The notes under the pieces are model-generated. The model was not told where the DNA came from. It saw only the letters and a program-made list of their open reading frames with translations, and did not search any database. From the IMG/VR virus record IMGVR_UViG_3300045988_112440: a DNA stretch of 64,000 bases; one strand, 5' to 3'. The DNA is from a virus. Positions within the stretch are counted from its first letter, which is position 1. Every line of letters begins with the position of its first letter. The translations under genes were made by a program, and so were the position numbers. Shown one piece after another: positions 3,549 through 42,938 of the stretch.

Positions 3549-3770
3549 ATGTGGGATTTAATTGAAAATGAATATTCTAAAAAATATGGAATTGGGTGCG
3601 CAACCTTTTTTCGTGACAAACAATTAAAAACAGCAATGGTTATGTATAAATATAATGGCCGTAGCGTTATGTTTTGCTATTCCGAGTACGATAATAAGAT
3701 TCTATCTGATGGTGATAAAGACGAAATTGAGATGACAATCAAAAAGAAACTCAACTTTTGGAAGGATTAA
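3549..3770 (+). CDS. MWDL-family protein, copy 1
   Basis: N-terminus MWDLIENEYSKKYGIGCA..VMYK is shared with the next copies. Confidence 0.65.
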   Translation: MWDLIENEYSKKYGIGCATFFRDKQLKTAMVMYKYNGRSVMFCYSEYDNKILSDGDKDEIEMTIKKKLNFWKD

Positions 3771-3772
3771 CT

Positions 3773-4009
3773 ATGTGGGATTTAATGGGTAACAATTATT
3801 CAGAAGTATACGGTATTGGATATGCTTTACTGAATGGAATTTCAGCTGGGTTTTATGTGAGTGTCATGTACAAGGACCTTGGAGATGAAATTCACTTCTA
3901 TTATCTTGATAATGCTCCTTACGGAGAACTTGATGATAATACCAAAAATAAAATTGAGGATATTATCCGTGATGACCTCAATAAGCGTCATATTTTTGGG
4001 GAGGACTGA
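3773..4009 (+). CDS. MWDL-family protein, copy 2
   Basis: MWDLMGNNYSEVYGIGYA..VMYK. Confidence 0.65.
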   Translation: MWDLMGNNYSEVYGIGYALLNGISAGFYVSVMYKDLGDEIHFYYLDNAPYGELDDNTKNKIEDIIRDDLNKRHIFGED

Positions 4010-4011
4010 TT

Positions 4012-4275
4012 ATGTGGGATTTAATAATAAATAATTACCACGAAGAAGATGGAACAGGTTGCGCCTTGATGTTCAACACAAGTGATAGGTGTTATCTTGA
4101 TGTTATGTACAAGTGTAGGCCGTTACACAATTCAATTCGTGTTTTTTATTCTCTTAATATTTCAGAGAATGAAAAAGAGAATATCGAAGAAGCACTTGTA
4201 AAAGAACTGAGAAACAATGGAGTTTTAAGGAGCGATGATTATGTGGGACCTGAGGGAAGTTCACGCTTGTTTTGA
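4012..4275 (+). CDS. MWDL-family protein, copy 3
   Basis: MWDLIINNYHEEDGTGCA..VMYK. Confidence 0.65.
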   Translation: MWDLIINNYHEEDGTGCALMFNTSDRCYLDVMYKCRPLHNSIRVFYSLNISENEKENIEEALVKELRNNGVLRSDDYVGPEGSSRLF

Positions 4276-4489
4276 TGGTGAAGGTTGGATTTGGAATGAA
4301 TCTTTCCATCACAAGAATGTGTTCGTAGGTGAGAATGAAGATCCGAAAGAAATCTTCTGGCAGGAATGTCAGATGTTCTTCCTTCAGGATTATCTAAGCA
4401 AGTGTGAAATCGTGGATAATGGTGATATTCTTGAACTTCAGTTGAAGGATTCCGGTGAGCCGGTTCTTGCTATGATGATTGCAGAGTAA
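4241..4489 (+). CDS. MWDL-initiated protein, divergent copy 4
   Basis: Starts MWDLREV; AAGGAG RBS 8 nt upstream; overlaps copy 3 by 35 nt. Confidence 0.55.
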   Translation: MWDLREVHACFDGEGWIWNESFHHKNVFVGENEDPKEIFWQECQMFFLQDYLSKCEIVDNGDILELQLKDSGEPVLAMMIAE

Positions 4490-4502
4490 AGGAGAATGAG
4501 TT

Positions 4503-4673
4503 ATGCAGCAATACGAAATTGTATTTTACCGCAATGATATTCTCGATGAATTGATTCCGTTTAAGAAAATGCATAAGGAATTTAATTCATATCAGGAAGC
4601 AAGAGTGTGGGCGCAAAATGAATTGTGTGACTTGCCTACGGCAGTCGCAATGAATGTGTTTATGGACATTTGA
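4503..4673 (+). CDS. hypothetical small protein (56 aa, below track cutoff)
   Basis: AAGGAGAATGAG upstream of ATG 4503; fills an otherwise empty gap. Confidence 0.45.
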   Translation: MQQYEIVFYRNDILDELIPFKKMHKEFNSYQEARVWAQNELCDLPTAVAMNVFMDI

Positions 4674-4682
4674 GGTGACAAT

Positions 4683-4928
4683 ATGGACGCCTTACATACG
4701 ATTATAAAAGAGCTGAGGGCAGGTAAGGTTTATGGTAAAACCTATGAGGGGCGAATCGAACCGTATTTCTGGTTTGTTATGTATAAAGATGGCAACTTTA
4801 TCCGTTGGAGACATTTTGGTGAAAGTTCAAACCGTTGCAATTTGAAAGACCTCAAATGGATAATAAAGGTCATCTTCAAGACAACGCCAGAGAAGTTTAT
4901 TGAAGAGTACGAATGTAAATACTGGTGA
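4683..4928 (+). CDS. hypothetical protein
   Basis: GAGGTGA RBS plus ATG. Confidence 0.6.
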   Translation: MDALHTIIKELRAGKVYGKTYEGRIEPYFWFVMYKDGNFIRWRHFGESSNRCNLKDLKWIIKVIFKTTPEKFIEEYECKYW

Positions 4929-4947
4929 TAAAAGGGAGATTTTAGAT

Positions 4948-5802
4948 ATGAAATATCTGTATTGCTACGATAATGAAATCATAAAATGGACTTACGGCGA
5001 TAACCTGTATTGCTTGCATATTCAGCACGACGACGTTGCAGACAATAACCCTCGTTGGTGGGATGACCACGATTCCGTGATGGCTTGTTTCCATCCTCGT
5101 TACCGTCTTGGTGATAAGGTCGATGCAAGCACACCGGAAGAGTTTTGGAACAATCTTGTTTACGAGATGTGCGAGCCAGAAGAAATTCTGGATGCACTTT
5201 TTAACATGAAACTGGAAGAATCCTGTGTGGTTATTGACAACGATAACAGTAGTATTGAAGAAACTCGTTATGCGATTTGTTGTCGTGAAGATCAAGCCAA
5301 TCCTTGGTATACCAATTTGAAATACAATGAAATTGCGACGTATGCTCGTGGTGATTTTTCTATTCGTGATTGTCAGATTCTTCTTGATAAACACATTGTA
5401 TGGCTTCCACTCTGGTTACATGACCACTCTGGCCTGTCTATGGATTATGATACACGATTCAGAGGTTCGTGGGACGATAGTAATGTTGGTTGGATTGTTA
5501 CAAAAGTTCCTAGCGGTTCTGATGTTTACAAAACAGAAGCAGAACGAATCATGCGTGATGAGGTAAAGACTTATAGCGATTATCTTTCCGGTGAGAATTA
5601 CGGCTATACGCTTTATCAAGAAGATCACGGAGAATGGAAGGAGATTGACAGAGCATTTGGATTTATCGGTTCTGATGTGCTTGAAAACGGTATCACATAC
5701 AGTGCTGGTTGTGGTCTTGAAAAGGCATTAAAGGAAGATCGGTGTCATATCGGTGAAGCAGAGAAAGTTGTTACTGTTACTTACAATTTTGATAAGGTAT
5801 AA
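4948..5802 (+). CDS. hypothetical protein (285 aa), W/D/H-rich
   Basis: AGGGAG RBS plus ATG 4948. Motifs are RWWDDHD and LPLWLHDHSGLSMD; family not recognised. Confidence 0.65.
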   Translation: MKYLYCYDNEIIKWTYGDNLYCLHIQHDDVADNNPRWWDDHDSVMACFHPRYRLGDKVDASTPEEFWNNLVYEMCEPEEILDALFNMKLEESCVVIDNDNSSIEETRYAICCREDQANPWYTNLKYNEIATYARGDFSIRDCQILLDKHIVWLPLWLHDHSGLSMDYDTRFRGSWDDSNVGWIVTKVPSGSDVYKTEAERIMRDEVKTYSDYLSGENYGYTLYQEDHGEWKEIDRAFGFIGSDVLENGITYSAGCGLEKALKEDRCHIGEAEKVVTVTYNFDKV

Positions 5803-5805
5803 ATT

Positions 5806-5916
5806 ATGAAGTACTTTGTTACAGTATCTTGTCCTGGTTATGTGATTGTTGATGCAGAGGATGAAAGAGAAGCAATGGAAATGGCCGAAGTTGTTGATCT
5901 AAAAGAGATAAATTGA
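5806..5916 (+). CDS. MKY-VTV family member truncated by an in-frame TGA (frame stays open to 5967)
   Basis: Reads MKYFVTVSCPGYVIVDAEDEREA..EIN-TGA-DTDDIRAGDCLVQKQF-TGA. The family-like D..D..DC tail lies after the first TGA. Confidence 0.45.
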   Translation: MKYFVTVSCPGYVIVDAEDEREAMEMAEVVDLKEIN

Positions 5917-19808: not shown

Positions 19809-20135
19809 ATGAGCGATAGAAAGGTTTTGAAAGTTATACGGGTTGATGATTTTTTAAAGTACATAAGAAAAAAGCGAGTGTGGGTCTGCTTTGTTTGTAA
19901 TGGTGTGGATATTCACATGATCTGCAAAAAGATTGACGACATTGGCGTAGAGACGGGTGGGATTGTTAATGGCGTGGGGTTCTTCGGAAATGAGAGTCAC
20001 ATCGAGTTGCGACAAAAATGCCATGAAGTAAGGAGAATTGAACTTAGGTCTGGCTGTGCAGAGAAAGCGTATGAGATGATCTTCGATAATACTAGTGTGT
20101 TCGTATCAGAGAATCCTGAGTTGTACGGGCACTAA
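19809..20135 (+). CDS. hypothetical protein
   Basis: ATG 19809 has a weak RBS; the track ORF starts at TTG 19770. Confidence 0.45.
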   Translation: MSDRKVLKVIRVDDFLKYIRKKRVWVCFVCNGVDIHMICKKIDDIGVETGGIVNGVGFFGNESHIELRQKCHEVRRIELRSGCAEKAYEMIFDNTSVFVSENPELYGH

Positions 20136-20154
20136 AAATATTTTCAAAAACCTC

Positions 20155-20183
20155 TTGACTTCTGTGATTGTATCCTGTATAAT
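20155..20183 (+). promoter_or_regulatory. consensus sigma70 promoter (TTGACT-17-TATAAT)
   Basis: Exact hexamers. The spacer and -10 region overlap an inverted copy of the 21-nt element. An 8-bp leader hairpin sits at 20182-20206. Confidence 0.7.
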
Positions 20184-20190
20184 GTAGCTA
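20170..20190 (-). promoter_or_regulatory. 21-nt conserved element, inverted copy
   Basis: + strand GTATCCTGTATAATGTAGCTA is the reverse complement of TAGCTACATTATACAGGATAC. Confidence 0.7.
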
Positions 20191-20226
20191 TGGAACGGAG
20201 CTACATCATTGTAGAGGAGAATGACT

Positions 20227-21652: not shown

Positions 21653-21659
21653 AACATTG

Positions 21660-21680
21660 TAACTATATAACACAGGATAC
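21660..21680 (+). promoter_or_regulatory. 21-nt conserved element, forward copy
   Basis: TAACTATATAACACAGGATAC, with 21 nt between it and the Pnkp ATG. Confidence 0.7.
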
Positions 21681-21701
21681 TTATTAGAAAGGGAAATGTA
21701 G

Positions 21702-23915
21702 ATGAGAACGCTTTTGCTGTTCCGTGGAGCACCAGGTTGTGGGAAGTCCACCTATATTAAAGAGCATAATCTTGAACAGTACGTATTGAGTGCTGATACA
21801 CTTCGCCTTATGTGCCAGAGCGCACAGGAAACACCTGCCGGGCAGATGGAGATTTCTCCGCAGAATGATGATGTTGTATGGGAGATGCTTTTCAAACTGC
21901 TTGAGGTGCGTATGAGTCATGGCGAGTTTACCGTGATTGATGCAACGAATTCCAAGACGGTCGAAATGAATCGTTATAAGAATCTGGCAAAACAGTATCG
22001 TTATCGGATGTATGTTATTGACATGACTGACCTTCCGATTGAGGAATGCAAACGAAGAAACGCTCAGAGAGAATGGCTGAAGCGAGTTCCTGAAGCGGCC
22101 ATTGATAAGATGTACGCTCGGTTTGCTACTCAAAAAGTTCCTTCTGGCGTGACAGTTCTTCCTTCTACTACAGATGTGATGTCCGATTTGAATTACTGTC
22201 CGAATGACTTCAACCAGTGGAAGAAGATCCATGTCATCGGTGATGTTCATGGCTGTTATACTTGTTTAAGTGAATACCTTGGCGAGATGAAGGACGACGA
22301 ACTTTATATTTTCGTTGGTGATTATCTCAATCGTGGCATCGAAAACGTTGAGGTATTCAAGTTCTTGTGTGATGTTGTAAATAACAACCGCAAGAATGTG
22401 ATCCTTTTGGAAGGGAATCACGAGCGTTGGCTGAACAAGTGGGGGCATGATGAACCGGTTCAGAGTGAAGAGTTTGCAAACTACACTCGTCCGCAGCTTT
22501 TTAAAGCTGGTATTGATAAGAACACTGCTCGTAAGATCTATTCCAGAGTCGGCCAGTGTGCCTACTTTGAGTATGATGGTAAGCGGTATTTCGTGAGCCA
22601 CGGTGGTTTGAGTTATCTGCCTTATTTTCTTCCTTTCGTATCTGCTGACCAGATGATCAAAGGTGTAGGTCGCTATCCTGATATGCTAACCGTGGCTGAG
22701 TCTTGGGAAAAATCGATGCCTGATAGCTATATTCAGATATTCGGTCATCGAAATGTGCAGGATGTTCCTATTGATATGGGGCATCGGTGCTACAACCTCG
22801 AAGGAAAAATCGAGTTTGGTGGATATCTCCGTTGCGTGGAACTTGAACACGGTCAGCCCGTCAAGTGTGTAGAAACCAAGAATGATGTATTCCGAAAAGA
22901 GGAACCAAAGACCGAATCTGCCGTTGAAATGAAAACTGAGTTCGATAACGCAGAACTTGTTAGTAAGATGCGTCAAAGCAAATATGTGTTTGAGAAGCGA
23001 TTCGGAGATATTTCTTCTTTCAACTTCTCTCGTGAAGCATTTTATAAGAAGCATTGGGATGAGGTTTCTACCAAAGCAAGGGGATTGTTCATTAACACAA
23101 AGACGAATAAGATTGTAGCTCGAAGCTATGATAAGTTCTTTGCGGTTGATGAGCGGAATGAAACGAGAATTGGAAACCTACAGAACACTTTGAAGTTCCC
23201 GGTGACTGCGTATCTAAAAGAGAACGGATTTCTTGGTATCATTTCGTATGATGCAGAACAGGATGGCCTGTTCATTGCAAGTAAATCCACTCCTGAAGGG
23301 CCTTTTGCAGATATGTTCCGAAAGATTCTCATGGATACGACTTCTGATGAAGATCGTAAGAATCTGAAAGAAGTTGCAAAAGAGAATGGCTCCATCATCT
23401 TCGAGGTGATTGATCCTGTGAATGATGCTCATATCATTGAATACAAGAAACCACACATTGTTTTGCTGGATATTATTGCGAATGATATGAACTTCAGTGT
23501 GATGGATTACGATGATCTGAAGCGTGTTGCTGAAAAGTGTCATTTGCAGATTAAGGAGAAGGTTAAGACTTTTGAGAACTGGAGTAAATTTTATCCTTGG
23601 TACGAGGAAGTCATGAACGAGAACTATCTGCATCATGGCTTTGAACACGTTGAAGGCTTTGTTTTGCGAGACAGCAACAATTTTATGTTTAAGATGAAGC
23701 TTCCTTATTATAAGCACTGGAAGTTCTTGCGTGGTGTCATGCAGAGTGTCCAGAAGCGTGGTTATTACGAAAACACTGCCAAGCTATTTACTGCTGAGGA
23801 TAACCTGTTCTATGGTTGGATGCGTGAGCAACGAGAGAAAGACCAGGAGTCTTTTTGCAAGAAGGGTATTATTCAGCTGCGGAATGAGTTCTACGCAAGT
23901 CAGCAGAAGAGCTGA
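21702..23915 (+). CDS. pnkp: trifunctional polynucleotide kinase-phosphatase-ligase (bacterial Pnkp-type RNA repair enzyme)
   Basis: N-terminal P-loop GAPGCGKS; central metallophosphoesterase GDVHGC/GDYLNRG/EGNHE; C-terminal adenylyltransferase with the KENGF lysine motif (near 23216). Confidence 0.85.
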   Translation: MRTLLLFRGAPGCGKSTYIKEHNLEQYVLSADTLRLMCQSAQETPAGQMEISPQNDDVVWEMLFKLLEVRMSHGEFTVIDATNSKTVEMNRYKNLAKQYRYRMYVIDMTDLPIEECKRRNAQREWLKRVPEAAIDKMYARFATQKVPSGVTVLPSTTDVMSDLNYCPNDFNQWKKIHVIGDVHGCYTCLSEYLGEMKDDELYIFVGDYLNRGIENVEVFKFLCDVVNNNRKNVILLEGNHERWLNKWGHDEPVQSEEFANYTRPQLFKAGIDKNTARKIYSRVGQCAYFEYDGKRYFVSHGGLSYLPYFLPFVSADQMIKGVGRYPDMLTVAESWEKSMPDSYIQIFGHRNVQDVPIDMGHRCYNLEGKIEFGGYLRCVELEHGQPVKCVETKNDVFRKEEPKTESAVEMKTEFDNAELVSKMRQSKYVFEKRFGDISSFNFSREAFYKKHWDEVSTKARGLFINTKTNKIVARSYDKFFAVDERNETRIGNLQNTLKFPVTAYLKENGFLGIISYDAEQDGLFIASKSTPEGPFADMFRKILMDTTSDEDRKNLKEVAKENGSIIFEVIDPVNDAHIIEYKKPHIVLLDIIANDMNFSVMDYDDLKRVAEKCHLQIKEKVKTFENWSKFYPWYEEVMNENYLHHGFEHVEGFVLRDSNNFMFKMKLPYYKHWKFLRGVMQSVQKRGYYENTAKLFTAEDNLFYGWMREQREKDQESFCKKGIIQLRNEFYASQQKS

Positions 23916-24030: not shown

Positions 24031-24115
24031 GGGGATATGGTGAAATTGGCAGCCACGCTTGATTCAAACTCAAGTGTCGAAAGACGTATCGGTTCAAATC
24101 CGATTATCCCTACCA
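24031..24115 (+). tRNA. tRNA-Leu(CAA), type II, CCA encoded
   Basis: Acceptor GGGGATA/TATCCCT; anticodon loop TTCAAAC; long variable arm GTCGAAAGAC; T arm ATCGG-TTCAAAT-CCGAT. Confidence 0.9.
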
Positions 24116-24312
24116 TGAAGATCAGTTGTTCTGGCTAGATCGGGGATTGGCCGTTCATTGGCAAACGACAGGTATCATACCGGTAAAGGATGCCGAGCCA
24201 AATAGGAAGGGGAATAAGGTGCAAGCCGAGTAGCTGTCGGACGAATACCCTTCAGGTAGCCAGTAAACCGGAATGTAAAACAAATGTTGGCTGTTTCTGA
24301 TCTTCTATATAA
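24116..24312 (+). ncRNA. structured inter-tRNA spacer, candidate ncRNA (class unknown)
   Basis: Nested helices 24117-24125/24297-24305 (9 bp), 24126-24130/24279-24283, 24131-24137/24257-24263 (7 bp) and 24166-24171/24234-24239 (6 bp). Confidence 0.4.
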
Positions 24313-24395
24313 GCTACCGTGGTGGAATGGCAGACACCGGAGACTTAAAATCTCCTGTCGGAAACGACGTGCCCGTTCAAGTCGGGTCGGTAGCA
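24313..24395 (+). tRNA. tRNA-Leu(TAA), type II
   Basis: Acceptor GCTACCG/CGGTAGC; anticodon loop CTTAAAA; long variable arm; no encoded CCA. Confidence 0.9.
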
Positions 24396-24402
24396 TTGAT
24401 AT

Positions 24403-24478
24403 CCGGGTGTAGCTCAGTTGGAAGAGCGCGTGCTTTGGGAGCATGAGGCCGCAGGATCGTGACCTGTCACTCGGACCA
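24403..24478 (+). tRNA. tRNA-Pro(TGG), CCA encoded, atypical T-loop
   Basis: Acceptor CCGGGTG/CACTCGG; anticodon loop TTTGGGA; T-loop is ATCGTGA instead of TTCRANN. Confidence 0.8.
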
Positions 24479-24507
24479 ACCCGAAAGGGCATGTAGAATT
24501 TTTCATT

Positions 24508-24566
24508 CACATTATTCCCAGCTCTCTGGAAACGGAGCAGTGTGACGTAGTAAGCTGGGCATATGC
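24508..24566 (+). ncRNA. tRNA-leader hairpin module, copy A
   Basis: CACATTATT then CCCAGCT(24517-24523)...AGCTGGG(24553-24559). It ends 7 nt before tRNA-Gln. Confidence 0.45.
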
Positions 24567-24637
24567 TGCGCCATCGCCAAGCGGTAAGGCAGAGGACTTT
24601 GACTCCTCCATCACAGGTTCGACCCCTGTTGGCGCAA
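24567..24637 (+). tRNA. tRNA-Gln(TTG)
   Basis: Acceptor TGCGCCA/TGGCGCA; anticodon loop CTTTGAC; T arm ACAGG-TTCGACC-CCTGT. Confidence 0.85.
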
Positions 24638-24642
24638 TTTAT

Positions 24643-24724
24643 GCGGATATGGTGGAATGGCAGACACGCCAGACTTAGGATCTGGTGCTTCGGCGTGTGG
24701 GTTCGATGCCCACTATCCGCACCA
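24643..24724 (+). tRNA. tRNA-Leu(TAG), type II, CCA encoded
   Basis: Acceptor GCGGATA/TATCCGC; anticodon loop CTTAGGA; long variable arm. Confidence 0.9.
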
Positions 24725-24770
24725 CGATCATAGAATGGTTGCGTACCGTTTGTTGATCTCCTTTGACTGC

Positions 24771-24830
24771 CACTATTATTCCCAGCTCACCAGTGATGGT
24801 GCAGTAGTGCTTTGTAAGCTGGGTGATTAT
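24771..24830 (+). ncRNA. tRNA-leader hairpin module, copy B
   Basis: CACTATTATT then CCCAGCT(24781-24787)...AGCTGGG(24817-24823), with inner hairpin CACCA-GTGA-TGGTG. It ends 7 nt before tRNA-Gly. Confidence 0.45.
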
Positions 24831-24905
24831 GCAGCGGTCGTACAATGGTTAGTATATCAGCCTTCCAAGCTGAGGATGAGGTTTCGACTACCTTTCGCTG
24901 CTCCA
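24831..24905 (+). tRNA. tRNA-Gly(TCC), CCA encoded
   Basis: Acceptor GCAGCGG/TCGCTGC; anticodon loop CTTCCAA; T loop TTCGACT. Confidence 0.85.
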
Positions 24906-24996
24906 ATCTCGTATGGGTAGGATTTTTAGCGGTCAAATCCGGCTGCGCCTGTGCGAGATACCACCCCGAAAGGGGAGAGATATAGGAAATGTGCAT

Positions 24997-25092
24997 CACT
25001 GTTATTCCTTCCTCGTCTATATGATATAGATGCAATAGTGTTTATAAGGAAGGTTCCCAGTTGAATAGTTGCAGCTGTTTGACTGGGAATAT
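24997..25092 (+). ncRNA. tRNA-leader hairpin module, copy C (two stacked hairpins)
   Basis: CACTGTTATTCC, then CCTTCCT(25007-13)/AGGAAGG(25047-53), then TTCCCAGT(25054-61)/ACTGGGAA(25082-89). It ends 3 nt before tRNA-Met. Confidence 0.4.
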
Positions 25093-25169
25093 GGGATAGT
25101 AGCTCAGTTGGTCAGAGCTGGCGGCTCATAACCGCTTGGTCGCGAGTTCAAATCTTGCCTGTCCCACCA
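25093..25169 (+). tRNA. tRNA-Met(CAT) elongator type (or Ile2 if lysidine-modified), CCA encoded
   Basis: Acceptor GGGATAG/CTGTCCC; anticodon loop CTCATAA; T loop TTCAAAT; pair 1-72 is G-C, so it is not an initiator. Confidence 0.85.
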
Positions 25170-25248: not shown

Positions 25249-25263
25249 TCATTTTCGGAGATT

Positions 25264-25284
25264 TAGCTATGTAACACAGGATAC
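25264..25284 (+). promoter_or_regulatory. 21-nt conserved element, forward copy
   Basis: TAGCTATGTAACACAGGATAC, with 17 nt between it and the MTase GTG. Confidence 0.7.
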
Positions 25285-25301
25285 TAAAAGGAGGTGGTTT
25301 G

Positions 25302-26841
25302 GTGAAACATTATGGAAGTATTTGCGAGATTGATGGTTCTAAGATTGAGCCTGTCTCGTGTATCACTGGTGGTTCACCTTGTTAGCCAAGACCTTTCTAT
25401 TGCCGGTAAGCGGGCAGGTTTGGCTGGAGAACGGTCTGGTCTATTTATGGAAATGATTCGTGTGATAAAGGAAATGAGGGATGCCACCAATGGAGAATGT
25501 CCAAAATTTGCAATCTGGGAAAATGTTAGAGGAGCACTTTCCTCAAACAACGGAGAAGACTTCCGATGCGTCTTGGAAGAATTTGCACACATCGTCGAAG
25601 CAGACGCTACAATTCCTAAACCTTCGGGAAAAGGCGGAAAATGGTCTAAATCCGGCGCAATTTCCGGTAATGGATGGTCTTTGGCATGGAGACTCTTTGA
25701 TGCTCAATATTGGGGAGTGCCCCAACGTCGTCAAAGAATCGCGCTTGTCATGGATTTTAGAGGACAACGTGCCGCAGAAATACTATTTGAGCGCACGGGC
25801 GTGCCAGGGAATCCTGACGAGAGCATCCCGACGTGGCAAAGCTTTGCCAGAATTACTGAAGAATGCACTGCTAAAGATGATCGAGTGGTGGGAGAAAAAA
25901 GCTTTTGTATTGTCGGAAACATGATTGACAGAGAAACCAATATGAACGGGACTGGTGTAAAAGAAGATACTGCTTTTACTATAAACACTATTGACCGTAA
26001 TGCTGTTGCCTATACTTTAAAGATTCGTTCAGGATGCGAAGGTGGTGGCAAAGGCGCACTGGTACAGACCGAGAAGAGTGCAACGCTTTCTACATTGCAA
26101 GATCAAACGCTAATCTGCTTGGCAGACAACACCTCTTTACATAATTTAAAACAAAAGATTTGTGTCTTGAATGATCAGGGCGGTAGTGTAATGAATGTTT
26201 CTTACGATATTGTAGGAACAATAAGAGCACAAGAGCATGGTCATCAACCAATTGTATTTGAGAGCCATAGTCAAGATGCTCGATACACCCAGCAAGGTAA
26301 TACAAGTCCGGCTTGTACGGCTCAATGGGGAACTGGTGGCAATAATATGCCGCTTGTTGCCGAAAAGAAAGCCTTTGCAATGCAACGCATTGGTGAATAC
26401 AAGGAAAGTGAACAAGCTAGTACGATGAAATCTCGTGACTACAAGGATGCTACTGACTTGATTGCAGAGAAGGAAACGAAGAATCTGCAATGGATTGTTC
26501 GTCGCCTGACTCCTGTTGAGTGTGAACGGTTACAGGGTTTTCCTGATGGATGGACCGATATTGGCGAGTGGTTTGATGAGAATGGTAAAAAGCACAAACC
26601 TGCCGATTCTCCTCGTTACAAAGCACTCGGTAATTCAATCGCTTTGCCTCAGTGGTATTGGATTTTCCAGAAAATGAAACCGTATATCGGTGAAAATCCC
26701 ACGCTTGGCAGTCTTTTCGATGGAATTGGTGGCTTTCCGCTTGTCTTTGAAAGTATGTATGGTGATGGTGCTGCTATCTGGGGATCAGAGATTGAACCGT
26801 TCTGCGTTGCAGTAACGAAGAAGCATTTCCCAGAAGACTAA
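25302..26841 (+). CDS. dcm: C5 DNA cytosine methyltransferase with circularly permuted motif order, disrupted at the catalytic PCQ motif (needs a +1 shift at 25383, or is a pseudogene)
   Basis: AGGAGG RBS, then GTG 25302 gives VKHYGSICEIDGSKIEPVSCITGGSPC-TAG. The +1 frame continues SQDLSIAGKRAG, ENV (FAIWENVRG), QRRQRI, a long TRD, RRLTPVECERLQGFP and LGNSIA. Motif I/II (LFDGIGGF..SEIEPF..KKHFP) then sits at the C-terminus. Confidence 0.8.
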
Positions 26842-26878: not shown

Positions 26879-27085
26879 ATGAACAGCAAAATTCCTGTCA
26901 ATGCAACCATCGATCCTGGCTCTTTGAGTATTCCGGCAAGTCCTATCTTCCAAAAGGAAAAGAATACATATCTTTGTCCGTTTTGTGTGACGAAGCTGGA
27001 GAAGTTCGAGCGTGAATGTTCTGATTGTCATCGCAAGATGGATTGGAGTAGGTTTACTGAAAAGAAGGAGGAGATGTTCACTTGA
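26879..27085 (+). CDS. zinc-ribbon small protein
   Basis: CPFC..x..CSDC; GAGGTGA RBS. Confidence 0.55.
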   Translation: MNSKIPVNATIDPGSLSIPASPIFQKEKNTYLCPFCVTKLEKFERECSDCHRKMDWSRFTEKKEEMFT

Positions 27086-27360
27086 ATATAGATTTCTTCC
27101 AACGGCGCAAGACTCAGCTTGAGGATACTCTTCTTTTGAAAAATCAGGCGGTCGATATGCTTGATTATCTAAAGACGCATTGTATCAATAGCGACCAGTA
27201 TTGTACCATTCGGGATTACATTGAAGAAGCTGCTAAGATTCTGGAGAGTGACCTCGAATACGCAAACAACAAGTTGCAATCCGCATTCAGACCTAAGTAT
27301 GGTCGGAACAACAGACTGACTCGTGTTCAATCTAAAATGTTCCGTGATAGAGAATATTAA
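27082..27360 (+). CDS. hypothetical protein (TTG start)
   Basis: AGGAGGAG lies 8 nt before the TTG. Confidence 0.5.
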   Translation: MNIDFFQRRKTQLEDTLLLKNQAVDMLDYLKTHCINSDQYCTIRDYIEEAAKILESDLEYANNKLQSAFRPKYGRNNRLTRVQSKMFRDREY

Positions 27361-27378
27361 AAATGGGGTGATGCCGCT

Positions 27379-27597
27379 ATGGTGATAAGTAAACATGTAT
27401 GTAACTGGTGTGGCAAGGAATATTCCAAGAATCCTTGTGGAGATACAATCTCTATGTATCACGAATTTGGTTATGAAAGCCCGACATGGGATGGTGCGAA
27501 GCTACAGTTCTCTTTGTGCCAGGAGTGCTCCGATAAGTTTGCAGGAGTACTCCGAGCGATGTTTACATACGATCCCATTGAAGATTCTCAGTGTTAA
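27379..27597 (+). CDS. zinc-ribbon small protein
   Basis: CNWCG..x..CQEC. Confidence 0.55.
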   Translation: MVISKHVCNWCGKEYSKNPCGDTISMYHEFGYESPTWDGAKLQFSLCQECSDKFAGVLRAMFTYDPIEDSQC

Positions 27598-28844: not shown

Positions 28845-28858
28845 AAATTTTTTGCTTT

Positions 28859-28879
28859 TAACTAAGTGACACAGGATAC
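28859..28879 (+). promoter_or_regulatory. 21-nt conserved element, forward copy
   Basis: TAACTAAGTGACACAGGATAC, with 36 nt between it and ATG 28916. Confidence 0.65.
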
Positions 28880-28915
28880 CAATAAAAGAAAAGATTTAGA
28901 GAGGAATTTACATAT

Positions 28916-41421: not shown

Positions 41422-42765
41422 ATGGATGCAGCAATCAATGAGGCCGAAAATGCGCTTGGCATCGAGTATACCGAAGAACAGAGAGATGCCATTAAAAAGG
41501 TATGCTCTAGCAACGTCTGTATTTTAACAGGCTACGGCGGAACTGGCAAAAGTACCGTTGTCGCTGGTGTCTTAAAAGTTCTTCGTGGTAAGTCTTTTGC
41601 ACAGACTGCACTCTCTGGCCGTGCTGCCGCTCGTATGCAGGAGATTACTGGTCAGGATGGAAAGACGATTCATCGTCTCCTTGGATATGACATCGAGAAC
41701 GGTGGGTTTGTTCACGATAAGGACAATCCTCTGGATGAGGACATCATCATTCTGGATGAGACCTCCATGGTTGGTGCTCAATTGTTTTACGATTTGATTC
41801 AGGCAATCGAAACCGGCAAGCGATTCATCATGATTGGTGATGACGGTCAGCTTGAGAGTATCGGTATGTGTAACATCTTCAAGGATATGCTTGCATCTAA
41901 GGTTGTTCCTGTGGCTCGTTTGACTAAGATCCATCGTCAGGCAGCCAAGTCTGCAATTATCACGGAGAGCATTAAGGTTCGTAACGCTACGCAATTGGTG
42001 CCTTATGGCTGGGCTGGCAATGAGATTCGTGGTGAACTTCGTGATTTGGAGCTTGATATCTATAAAGACGCAAGTGAGTCATTCAACCACATTATCAATC
42101 AGTACCGTACCTTATATAATAAGGTAGGGAATGATAGTGCGAAGATTCAGATTGTGCTTCCACAGAAGCTGCGTGGTAGTATCTGTACCTATGAAGTCAA
42201 TAATGCTATTCAGGAAATTGTGAATCCGAGTCGTGGTCAAGCAGAAGCAAAGGTCACAATCTATGGTGATGGCAAGGATAGAGCGTACACTCTGCGTGAG
42301 GGTGATCAGGTCATTATCAACAAGAACAACTATGAGCTTCACACATACAATCTCAAGACAAAGAAAAAAGAAGAGAAGTGTCCGGTGTTCAACGGAAACC
42401 GTGGCATTATCCGAAAGATTGAGAATAGTTTTATCCTGGTTGATTTTGACCAGTGGGGAACGATCTTCATTCCACATTACTTTGGTGGGAATAACGTCTG
42501 GGCAACACTTGAACTTGCTTATGCTTTAAGTTGTCATAAGTTGCAGGGCAGTGAGGCTCCGTATGTGATTGTTGGCATGGACAACTCTGCGTACCTGATG
42601 CTGACGAGAGAATGGCTCTATACGGCCATCACTCGTGCCAAGAAGTATTGTGTGATTTGCGCCGAAACTCATGCTCTTGATCGGGCTGTAAAGACTTCGA
42701 GAGTTCCATATAAGCGGACGTTCTTGAAGGAATTTTTACGGAAAGAATTTTCAGAAAAGCATTGA
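41422..42765 (+). CDS. recD2: RecD2-like helicase, SF1 ATPase core (same frame as 40435..41349; open from 41350)
   Basis: Walker A GYGGTGKST, DETSMV, SF1 C-terminal motifs HKLQGSE and YTAITRAK; no RBS before ATG 41422. Confidence 0.8.
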   Translation: MDAAINEAENALGIEYTEEQRDAIKKVCSSNVCILTGYGGTGKSTVVAGVLKVLRGKSFAQTALSGRAAARMQEITGQDGKTIHRLLGYDIENGGFVHDKDNPLDEDIIILDETSMVGAQLFYDLIQAIETGKRFIMIGDDGQLESIGMCNIFKDMLASKVVPVARLTKIHRQAAKSAIITESIKVRNATQLVPYGWAGNEIRGELRDLELDIYKDASESFNHIINQYRTLYNKVGNDSAKIQIVLPQKLRGSICTYEVNNAIQEIVNPSRGQAEAKVTIYGDGKDRAYTLREGDQVIINKNNYELHTYNLKTKKKEEKCPVFNGNRGIIRKIENSFILVDFDQWGTIFIPHYFGGNNVWATLELAYALSCHKLQGSEAPYVIVGMDNSAYLMLTREWLYTAITRAKKYCVICAETHALDRAVKTSRVPYKRTFLKEFLRKEFSEKH

Positions 42766-42790
42766 CAATCATATTGGTGTCCTGTATAAT
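42762..42790 (+). promoter_or_regulatory. consensus sigma70 promoter (TTGACA-17-TATAAT)
   Basis: Exact hexamers. The -35 overlaps the recD2 stop codon. The spacer and -10 overlap an inverted copy of the 21-nt element. Confidence 0.7.
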
Positions 42791-42797
42791 GTAGCTA
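42777..42797 (-). promoter_or_regulatory. 21-nt conserved element, inverted copy
   Basis: + strand GTGTCCTGTATAATGTAGCTA. Confidence 0.65.
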
Positions 42798-42835
42798 TAA
42801 GAAGTCTCTATCCCAGAGGCTTAAAATTCTCTCTT

Positions 42836-42856
42836 TAACTATATAATACAGGATAC
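42836..42856 (+). promoter_or_regulatory. 21-nt conserved element, forward copy
   Basis: TAACTATATAATACAGGATAC. Confidence 0.7.
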
Positions 42857-42859
42857 GGG

Positions 42860-42899: not shown

Positions 42900-42904
42900 G
42901 GCTA

Positions 42905-42925
42905 TAACTATATAATACAGGATAC
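42905..42925 (+). promoter_or_regulatory. 21-nt conserved element, forward copy
   Basis: TAACTATATAATACAGGATAC, with 13 nt between it and the ligase ATG. Confidence 0.7.
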
Positions 42926-42938
42926 GCAAGGAGGCTTT

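Follow-up and report, generated by a model that had tools for sequence, protein, structure and literature searches.

The gene at positions 25302-26841 of a viral DNA of 64,000 nucleotides (nt; IMG/VR virus record IMGVR_UViG_3300045988_112440; this whole stretch is called the window here) encodes, to judge from its sequence, a C5-cytosine methyltransferase (C5-MTase) whose conserved motifs follow the order III/IV-VI-VIII-variable region-IX-X-I-II, a clean permutation with the break in the loop between motifs II and III. New chain ends between motifs II and III define the permuted Type B (PMC5944983), and this is the arrangement found here: the chain begins between motifs II and III, a linker of ~10-18 amino acids (aa) connects motif X with motif I, and ..KKHFPE(D) forms the end of the chain after motif II. 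Taken as a whole, the explanation that we consider likely is that of a natural family of Type B C5-MTases, carried by phages as an orphan gene and with canonical chemistry in its intact members, of which the copy in the window has become inactive.

The permuted order is real, because segments of M.HhaI align with the protein in permuted order and because the match to the Pfam family PF00145, split into three stretches, lies far above the curated cut-off of 22 bits, with 103 bits for the raw open reading frame (ORF) and 128 bits for the protein repaired across a 4-nt insertion described below. In the phmmer comparison with M.HhaI, query residues 4-89, 125-152 and 398-447 aligned to HhaI residues 58-136, 146-172 and 271-308, respectively, and query residues 469-508 to HhaI 16-53 (motifs I-II); motifs I-II are thus covered by the last 45 residues and motifs III-V by the first 90. 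LFDGIGGF and SEIE are located at residues 470-497, at the C-terminus rather than the N-terminus, and motifs VI (ENV), VIII (QxRxR), IX (RxxTxxE) and X (GN) are all present. The order is not the canonical one from I through X, as motifs I-II come after motif X; nor is it that of the M.BssHII type, as the protein starts at motif III/IV and has an internal variable region, nor that of the DRM type, as the N-terminal stretch of motifs IV and VI is unbroken. A preliminary description, made from the letters of the window alone, had proposed ENV, QRRQRI, a target-recognition region of about 230 aa, motif IX and LGNSIA in succession, motifs I-II at the extreme C-terminus, a break in the II-III loop, and AGGAGG followed by GTG 17 nt after a repeat copy. 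All of these elements were located in the sequence (Table 1), the checks that it had suggested yielded the split Pfam match and homologues of the same order, and the permutation proved to be conserved across a large family.

An AlphaFold model, computed with a family alignment, was obtained for P0044, an intact relative of 510 aa that is 90% identical to the window protein. The predicted local distance difference test score (pLDDT) was >90 for residues 1-160, the catalytic loop excepted, 88-97 for residues 400-510 and 93-97 for the motif I-II module; the variable region was poorly predicted, and the predicted template modelling score (pTM) was 0.66. A strand-helix-strand-helix element at residues 466-506 corresponds to beta1-alphaA-beta2-alphaB. 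When Foldseek was run with this model, the best solved structures were M.HhaI (E = 4.6e-8, probability 1.0), M.MpeI and M.HaeIII, and P0044 is thus predicted to have a class I MTase fold resembling M.HhaI and M.HaeIII. To the suggestion that the C-terminal strand of motifs I-II might pack into the Rossmann fold, the model answers with a confidently predicted C-terminal element and with M.HhaI among the fold matches.

The same order recurs widely. Hundreds of clusters with 88-100% identity and the same C-terminal motifs I-II, the intact P0044 being one of them, emerged from a search of 5.8 billion proteins, and IMG/VR held 424 relatives of the window gene, from which 80 loci were fetched, mostly human-gut phage contigs of ~70-140 kb, 79 of them comparable. 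The C-terminal module ..LFDGIGGFPL..SEIE..VTKKHFPE.. is reached uninterrupted in 74 of the 79; the other five are stopped early by a stop codon, and in all four of these that were re-aligned by tblastn the module still lies downstream. In all compared loci the start position is identical, directly before K-H/Q-Y/L-G-D-I (motif III), with GTG, CTG or ATG as the start codon 7-8 nt after AGGAGG. At a greater distance, an exhaustive HMMER search of 1.84 billion representatives at 50% identity gave 30,804 relatives, and the best 150, when classified, comprised 106 of Type B, 28 canonical ones and 16 fragments or other arrangements. The Type B gene is also present in the cultured Faecalibacterium phages FP_Toutatis (NC_047915, 6463-7874) and Lelie, where it is 65% identical to P0044 and annotated as two 'DNA methyltransferase' coding sequences or as hypothetical proteins. 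In a scan of GTDB with one genome per species, nine of the best 80 loci were of Type B, all from Oscillospirales or related Clostridia (Gemmiger sp. An87, Acutalibacter sp. 1XD8-33 and metagenome-assembled genomes of Oscillospiraceae and Clostridia), and 58 were canonical relatives from Clostridia, Tissierellia and Actinomycetota; most matches that at first appeared full-length were rejected as Type B, being canonical genes matched piecewise. Because the permuted order recurs in IMG/VR contigs, in the majority of the best representatives, in two cultured phages and in Oscillospirales genomes, it is not an artefact.

Conservation was assessed in an alignment (A1, 63 members, 43-65% identity) that comprises P0044 and 62 diverse representatives with the permuted order. 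Invariant positions are P26, C27, Q28 and S31 in motif IV, E72, N73 and V74 in motif VI, R398, R399, E404 and L408 in motif IX, G441 and N442 in motif X, S468, F470, G472 and F476 in motif I, and E494 in motif II; Q139, R140, R141 and R143 of motif VIII and D6 of motif III, which is S in the window protein, are at least 90% conserved. Among intact alleles, the ratio of nonsynonymous to synonymous substitution rates (dN/dS) was 0.14-0.19.

These data also bear on the idea that the C-terminal motifs I-II have no function and are left over from a truncated neighbouring gene or a tandem duplicate, or that the order is an assembly artefact, and that no true permuted enzyme exists. Closely related canonical genes with an N-terminal LGSLFDGIGGFPL do exist (28 of the 150 representatives and 58 of the 80 genome loci), which makes tandem intermediates plausible, but motif X continues into motif I in a single frame without a stop, the proteins have no N-terminal motifs I-II, so that the C-terminal copy is the sole one, and F470, G472 and E494 are invariant in the 63 diverse members. 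The order is, moreover, identical in hundreds of independent assemblies and two isolate genomes, and it is the motif I-II module that was predicted with the high pLDDT given above. We regard a leftover or artefact as extremely unlikely, contradicted as it already is by the conservation seen in the aligned sequences.

Several variants were observed within the family. Toutatis-like Type B genes have a poly-G tract within the coding region, of G10 in an intact contig (L204, 661-670), G9 in FP_Toutatis (L122, 1821-1829) and G14 in Lelie (L123, 1821-1834), and the genes of the two cultured phages are out of frame because of these tract lengths; the variable tract looks like a slipped-strand ON/OFF (phase-variable) switch or a homopolymer sequencing error. 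The commonest intact allele (L016, L023-L053 and others) has no in-frame ATG, GTG or TTG. Its conserved start is a CTG 8 nt after AGGAGG and 3 nt before AAGCAT (around locus position 3917), with a conserved out-of-frame ATG just 1 nt after the Shine-Dalgarno sequence, and this CTG is possibly a deliberately weak start. Six distant representatives (P0164, P0243, P0246, P0260, P0261 and P0262) show the order (variable region)-IX-X-I-II-IV-VI-VIII, which may reflect either an M.BssHII-like break around the same X-to-I fusion or fragments of tandem fusions. P0047 carries an intein within the methylase, directly after ENV of motif VI, and P0051, L067, L068 and L070 (about 4001-5902) have an in-frame insert of ~175 aa, resembling a homing endonuclease with HNH and helix-turn-helix (HTH) features, between RLQGFP of motif IX and GWTDIG.

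C5-MTases have a textbook rigid motif order, and the described natural prokaryotic exceptions keep both structural domains whole. Albert et al. 2018 searched 20,677 REBASE entries and arrived at 27 natural permuted C5-MTases (M.BssHII, M.Alw26I, M2.Eco31IC, M.Esp3I and M2.BsaI plus 22 from the REBASE scan), all broken in the variable region as in M.BssHII (PMC5944983). Enzymes of that type (Type H/J) are likewise natural circular permutations of this fold whose single chain passes from motif X to motif I, but their break lies in the variable region (TRD/IX-X-I...VIII, where TRD is the target-recognition domain), leaving both domains whole, whereas the window family is broken within the large domain, at the II-III loop, with beta1-beta2 (motifs I-II) as the only relocated part. 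The closest counterparts are engineered. The constructs cp62M.MpeI and cp58M.SssI, with the same II-III breakpoint, surpassed the other viable permutants, of ten types in all, in activity, cp62M.MpeI being about as active as the wild type; a natural counterpart of Type B was reported absent, and weaker binding of S-adenosylmethionine (SAM) was proposed as the reason (PMC5944983). The topology of these constructs is identical to that of the window family (N-terminus between motifs II and III, X fused to I), but they are laboratory versions of monospecific CG or GGCC enzymes, whereas the window family is natural and diverse, is known from sequence and has a cassette-built variable region of ~230 aa.

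Among eukaryotes, DRM2 acts in RNA-directed DNA methylation, carries UBA domains and has its break between motifs V and VI (order VI-X, I-V). Like the window family, plant DRM2 (PDB 7l4h, 4onj) is a natural C5-MTase with motifs I onward after motif X; motif IV of our query aligns to DRM2 residues 305-348, near the C-terminus of DRM2, and the two are not closely related in sequence. Because DRM2 also places motifs I onward late, the novelty is the breakpoint and the prokaryotic and viral family. In the searchable full-text literature, with most subscription journals and REBASE notes outside its scope, no later report of a natural Type B C5-MTase was found, which agrees with the earlier suspicion that the order had not been described; the family is a natural Type B variant of a known enzyme class, apparently undescribed in that literature.

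An intact member is a single polypeptide running from motif III/IV through VI, VIII, the multi-cassette recognition region, IX, X and the linker to I and II, in which the last ~45 residues would supply beta1, beta2 and the SAM pocket and pack beside the N-terminal beta4/PCQ strand, giving a normal class I fold. The helix and linker at 26650-26703 bridge the former C- and N-termini. Canonical C5-MTases have beta1, at the N-terminus, next to the helix that follows motif X at the C-terminus, and for this reason the X-I join and the opened II-III loop should keep the fold intact. The same packing has been stated for M.MpeI (PMC5944983). Catalysis would be canonical, the conservation pattern suggesting that Cys27 of PCQ attacks C6 with the assistance of ENV and QRR; by inference, intact members bind SAM via their last ~45 residues and methylate the C5 of cytosine via Cys27. 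No restriction enzyme or nuclease partner and no second MTase motif were found near the methylase in the window, and its function in the phage is most likely that of an orphan anti-restriction methylase, which would protect the phage DNA against several host restriction systems. The carrier is a gut phage of ~135 kb which, to judge from the relatives, probably infects Oscillospirales.

The permuted gene most plausibly arose when tandem copies fused in frame and both ends were then trimmed, as in Jeltsch's duplication model. Peisajovich in 2006 reportedly reproduced this duplication route in the laboratory, as did Albert in 2018. Canonical prophage C5-MTases of Clostridia and Actinomycetota (P0179, P0200; loci L132-L203) share the motif I and II sequences and the IX/X region with the window family but run normally from I to X, their first ~45 residues holding motifs I-II. 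With 50-60% identity in the catalytic core, such canonical relatives, starting ..LGSLFDGIGGFPL..PVWASEI.., are evidently the parent family.

The variable region is built from cassettes that are present, absent or replaced among the alleles, with sizes of 28-39 aa (A 36 aa, D 32 aa). Locus L054 has an extra 30-aa cassette, a 36-aa cassette occurs in L007, L019, L021 and L054, the family consensus in A1 shows four TL units, and the region finds its matches piece by piece in different phage MTases. In the commonest intact allele, cassette A is replaced; the idea that the replacement is a doubly frameshifted copy was rejected, the nucleotide alignment showing a non-homologous low-complexity linker. 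Multispecific Bacillus enzymes are orphan phage MTases whose variable region is enlarged by a series of short modules for target recognition, which are gained, lost or swapped. The variable region resembles these modular regions, an analogy in which multispecificity would follow from cassette polymorphism only, and the Bacillus phage enzymes M.SPRI, M.Phi3TI, M.Rho11sI and M.SPBetaI, unlike the Type B family, have the canonical order. At the outset the length of this region had been likened to that in multispecific phage MTases; a cassette structure resembling theirs was seen, but no sequence similarity to the Bacillus phage multispecific MTase records of the SPR/SPbeta type was detected.

The copy in the window is not read in one continuous frame. 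Frame 0 opens at GTG 25302, 17 nt 3' of the repeat copy, reads VKHYGSICEIDGSKIEPVSCITGGSPC and meets TAG directly after Cys27. The mechanically found long ORF is in the +1 frame (25312-26841, 509 aa, 'MEVFARL...'); its first 25 residues are out-of-frame noise, from residue 26 it reads QDLSIAGKR..., and joining the two frames gives the 511-aa repaired protein. Across the site the window reads CCTTG-TTAG-CCAAGA, with 4 extra nt compared with intact relatives, whose alleles (n=49) read ..CCTTGCCAAGA.. or ..TGTCAAGA... The contiguity of Pro-Cys-Gln, kept in the 49 intact relatives, is broken here by the insertion with its TAG (PC at 25377-25382, Q at 25387-25389), which halts frame 0 after the Cys27 codon and places the other 484 codons in +1. 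The preliminary description had treated the locus as one enzyme gene and hinted at a defect only by speaking of a 'repaired gene': the motifs are there, but the frame is interrupted and the allele is probably dead.

An exact-pattern scan found the identical insertion in 40 IMG/VR contigs. These TTAG carriers constitute a haplotype family of their own (GSICEIDGSK), and most of them have lost the motif III Asp (GSI or GNI for GDI). A pattern search of IMG/VR did not find an un-inserted version of the haplotype; its sole match, L081, was rejected as an unrelated canonical MTase. Further disabling lesions occur in 13 of the 40 carriers, six with an in-frame nonsense codon and seven with a second frameshift in the variable region, compared with one of the 49 intact alleles (Fisher p = 8e-5), and because of this excess we call the allele a pseudogene: the window copy is most likely a fairly recent, still-spreading null allele, decaying and without active enzyme.

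Some observations weigh against this picture of the family and of its broken copy. Permuted and canonical genes are interleaved in a neighbour-joining tree of the core domain, probably owing to mosaicism, and the tree therefore does not speak for a single origin of the permutation. The further lesions in TTAG carriers are not phylogenetically independent and amount to ~5-6 events, and 27 of the 40 carriers have no further disabling mutation, although several of these end with the fetched stretch; so many clean carriers are unexpected for an old pseudogene, and recoding, or frequent recombination between carriers and intact alleles, could account for them. Within the TTAG clade, dN/dS was 0.10 over the 27 upstream codons in frame 0 and 0.17 over codons 28-165 in +1, and eight of the 12 upstream segregating sites are third positions in frame 0 (second positions in +1). 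One locus, L016, is a visible recombinant; common descent, together with exchange of sequence with intact alleles, would explain the remaining 'constraint'.

The same figures can be turned in favour of a functional TTAG allele, in which ribosomes would pause at the weak UAG-C stop and shift to +1 or skip 4 nt, yielding a low, regulated amount of full-length enzyme. Low dN/dS on both sides, polymorphism on frame-0 third positions upstream and the lack of an un-inserted haplotype in IMG/VR would fit such programmed recoding, as would the presence of the identical site in 40 contigs on several variable-region backgrounds and the restriction of changes in the first 18 codons after the insertion to synonymous ones. 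A stop codon that is followed by C is in a weak context, which is a further point in favour of recoding, and a prfB-like programmed +1 shift would share the weak context of UGU-UAG-C. However, the site lacks a slippery sequence, since a tRNA-Cys paired with UGU is unable to re-pair with GUU, and neither a close Shine-Dalgarno-like stimulator at the prfB spacing nor another stimulatory element was identified in the sequence at the insertion site. A plain +1 shift would separate the Cys and Gln of PCQ, both near-universal, by a Ser, the adjacent tRNA array contains no unusual tRNA, and the loss of the motif III Asp in most carriers and the excess of nonsense and frameshift mutations over the intact alleles also count against recoding. 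Programmed recoding is therefore very unlikely in our view, and it is distinctly unlikely that TTAG is a recoding site that sets the output of a naturally permuted multispecific phage MTase, which would represent a new frameshift signal without a slippery codon.

We judge it just as distinctly improbable that the frameshift allele is kept for another product, be it a Cys-less SAM- and DNA-binding regulator or decoy starting in +1 at ATG 25312 or GTG 25369, or a two-piece enzyme of a 27-aa peptide and the large fragment. The downstream ORF is free of further disabling mutations in the 27 carriers mentioned, with low dN/dS, and C5-MTases tolerate fragment complementation (PMC5944983), but the +1 N-terminal extension (MEVFARL...) varies at second codon positions and so is not conserved as a protein, a split right after the catalytic Cys is sterically unlikely, and the further lesions pile up in the TTAG clade. 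A null allele is the reading we retain.

Four further readings of the frameshift were rejected. A sequencing or assembly error is incompatible with the insertion in 40 independent IMG/VR contigs and hundreds of protein clusters. Under reassignment of TAG, frame-0 read-through would give ..PCQPRPFYCR and then TAA. For a quadruplet-reading or suppressor tRNA in the adjacent array, ARAGORN and Rfam found seven ordinary tRNAs, and for a ribosomal hop to a matching Cys codon, the sole UGC further 3' lies in frame 0, where a TAA follows.

Two directed-evolution or design studies found permutants with motifs I-II at the C-terminus to be the best behaved, and one was puzzled at their absence in nature; Type B is abundant there, with at least 106 clusters at 50% identity, mostly from phages of gut Clostridia and including the cultured Faecalibacterium phages. 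With canonical parents at 50-60% identity, the family offers a natural test set for the duplication-and-truncation model and ready scaffolds for engineering split or permuted methyltransferases. It also calls for caution in annotation pipelines and REBASE-style motif searches, where Type B genes are filed as ordinary or fragmented methylases. Recurrent OFF states (the 4-nt insertion here, the variable poly-G tract in Toutatis-like phages) suggest strong fluctuating selection on phage self-methylation. Those who work on methyltransferases or protein evolution should find the family of moderate to high interest, and others of modest interest.

Table 1 Features of the permuted methyltransferase locus, with positions in the window
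Feature	Position	Strand	Evidence or remark
Repeat copy (family D1), ATTTAGCTATGTAACACAGGATACT	25261..25285	+	promoter-like, 5 copies in window
Shine-Dalgarno sequence AGGAGG	25289..25294	+	7 nt 5' of GTG start; conserved across 78 related loci
Frame-0 segment, 27 codons: GTG start, degraded motif III (GSI for GDI), motif IV to Cys27	25302..25382	+	start position conserved in relatives
CITGGSPC of motif IV, ending at catalytic Cys27	25359-25382	+	
4-nt insertion TTAG (equivalently TAGC 25383-25386)	25382..25385	+	relative to 49 intact alleles; TAG 25383-25385 and shift to +1
+1-frame continuation of catalytic domain	25387..25797	+	Pfam, M.HhaI alignment
Rest of motif IV, QDLSIAGKR	25387-25413	+	
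Motif VI, FAIWENVRG	25507-25533 (ENV 25519-25527)	+	
Motif VIII, QRRQRIALV	25723-25749	+	
Variable (target-recognition) region, ~230 aa, cassette-built	25798..26499	+	cassette polymorphism among alleles
Variable-region cassettes	A 25903-26010; core B 26011-26130; D 26161-26256; E 26257-26364; F 26365-26469	+	
Motif IX, RRLTPVECERLQGFP	26500-26544	+	M.HhaI alignment
Motif X, RYKALGNSIALP, containing LGNSIA	26614-26649	+	M.HhaI alignment
C-terminal helix of canonical fold and short linker, QWYWIFQKMKPYIGENPT	26650..26703	+	conserved in all alleles; helix 446-460 in model
Relocated SAM-binding module, motifs I-II and tail ..KKHFPED	26704..26838	+	aligns to HhaI 16-53
Motif I, LGSLFDGIGGFP	26704-26739	+	
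Motif II, AIWGSEIEPF	26773-26802	+	
TAA stop, at permutation breakpoint	26839..26841	+	

The methylase lies within a replication module that encodes a Sak4-like protein, DnaB, RecJ, DNA polymerase, helicase, ligase and NrdD. The 25-nt D1 motif AACTATATAAYACAGGATAC occurs at 21657-21681, 25261-25285, 28856-28880, 42833-42857 and 42902-42926, each time just 5' of an ORF start and ~17-35 nt upstream of genes of this module (Pnkp/ligase, methylase, Sak4-like, DNA ligase), and ..CAGGATAC.AAAAGGAGG is conserved upstream of the methylase in related loci; from this placement, D1 is probably a phage-specific promoter or operator. Two sigma-70-like promoters (TTGAC-N17-TATAAT) at 20135-20191 and 42742-42798 contain the reverse complement of D1, GTATCCTGTATAAT.

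Upstream of the methylase are a Pnkp/RNA-ligase gene (21702-23915) and seven tRNAs (24031-25169). The former encodes a 737-aa kinase-phosphatase-RNA ligase fusion (Pnkp-like, phrog_8238) directly 5' of the tRNA array (Leu x3, Pro, Gln, Gly, Met), a combination that suggests a module for tRNA repair or replacement against host anticodon nucleases. Between the tRNAs are two 49-nt repeats (24511-24559 and 24775-24823) with CCCAGC...GCTGGG ends. A search for near-identical DNA in an annotated phage collection gave only short tRNA matches and one partial match.

Directly 3' of the methylase, at 26879-27597, are small ORFs of 68, 92 and 72 aa, two of which have paired CxxC motifs and are zinc-ribbon-like; an ORF of 68 aa also lies 3' of the methylase on the contig of P0044 (L204, 1911-2117). 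Elsewhere in the window, at 3549-4250, three tandem repeats ~230 nt apart, each starting ..GGAG..ATGTGGGATTTAAT.. (families D2, D9), look like a row of three small paralogous genes.

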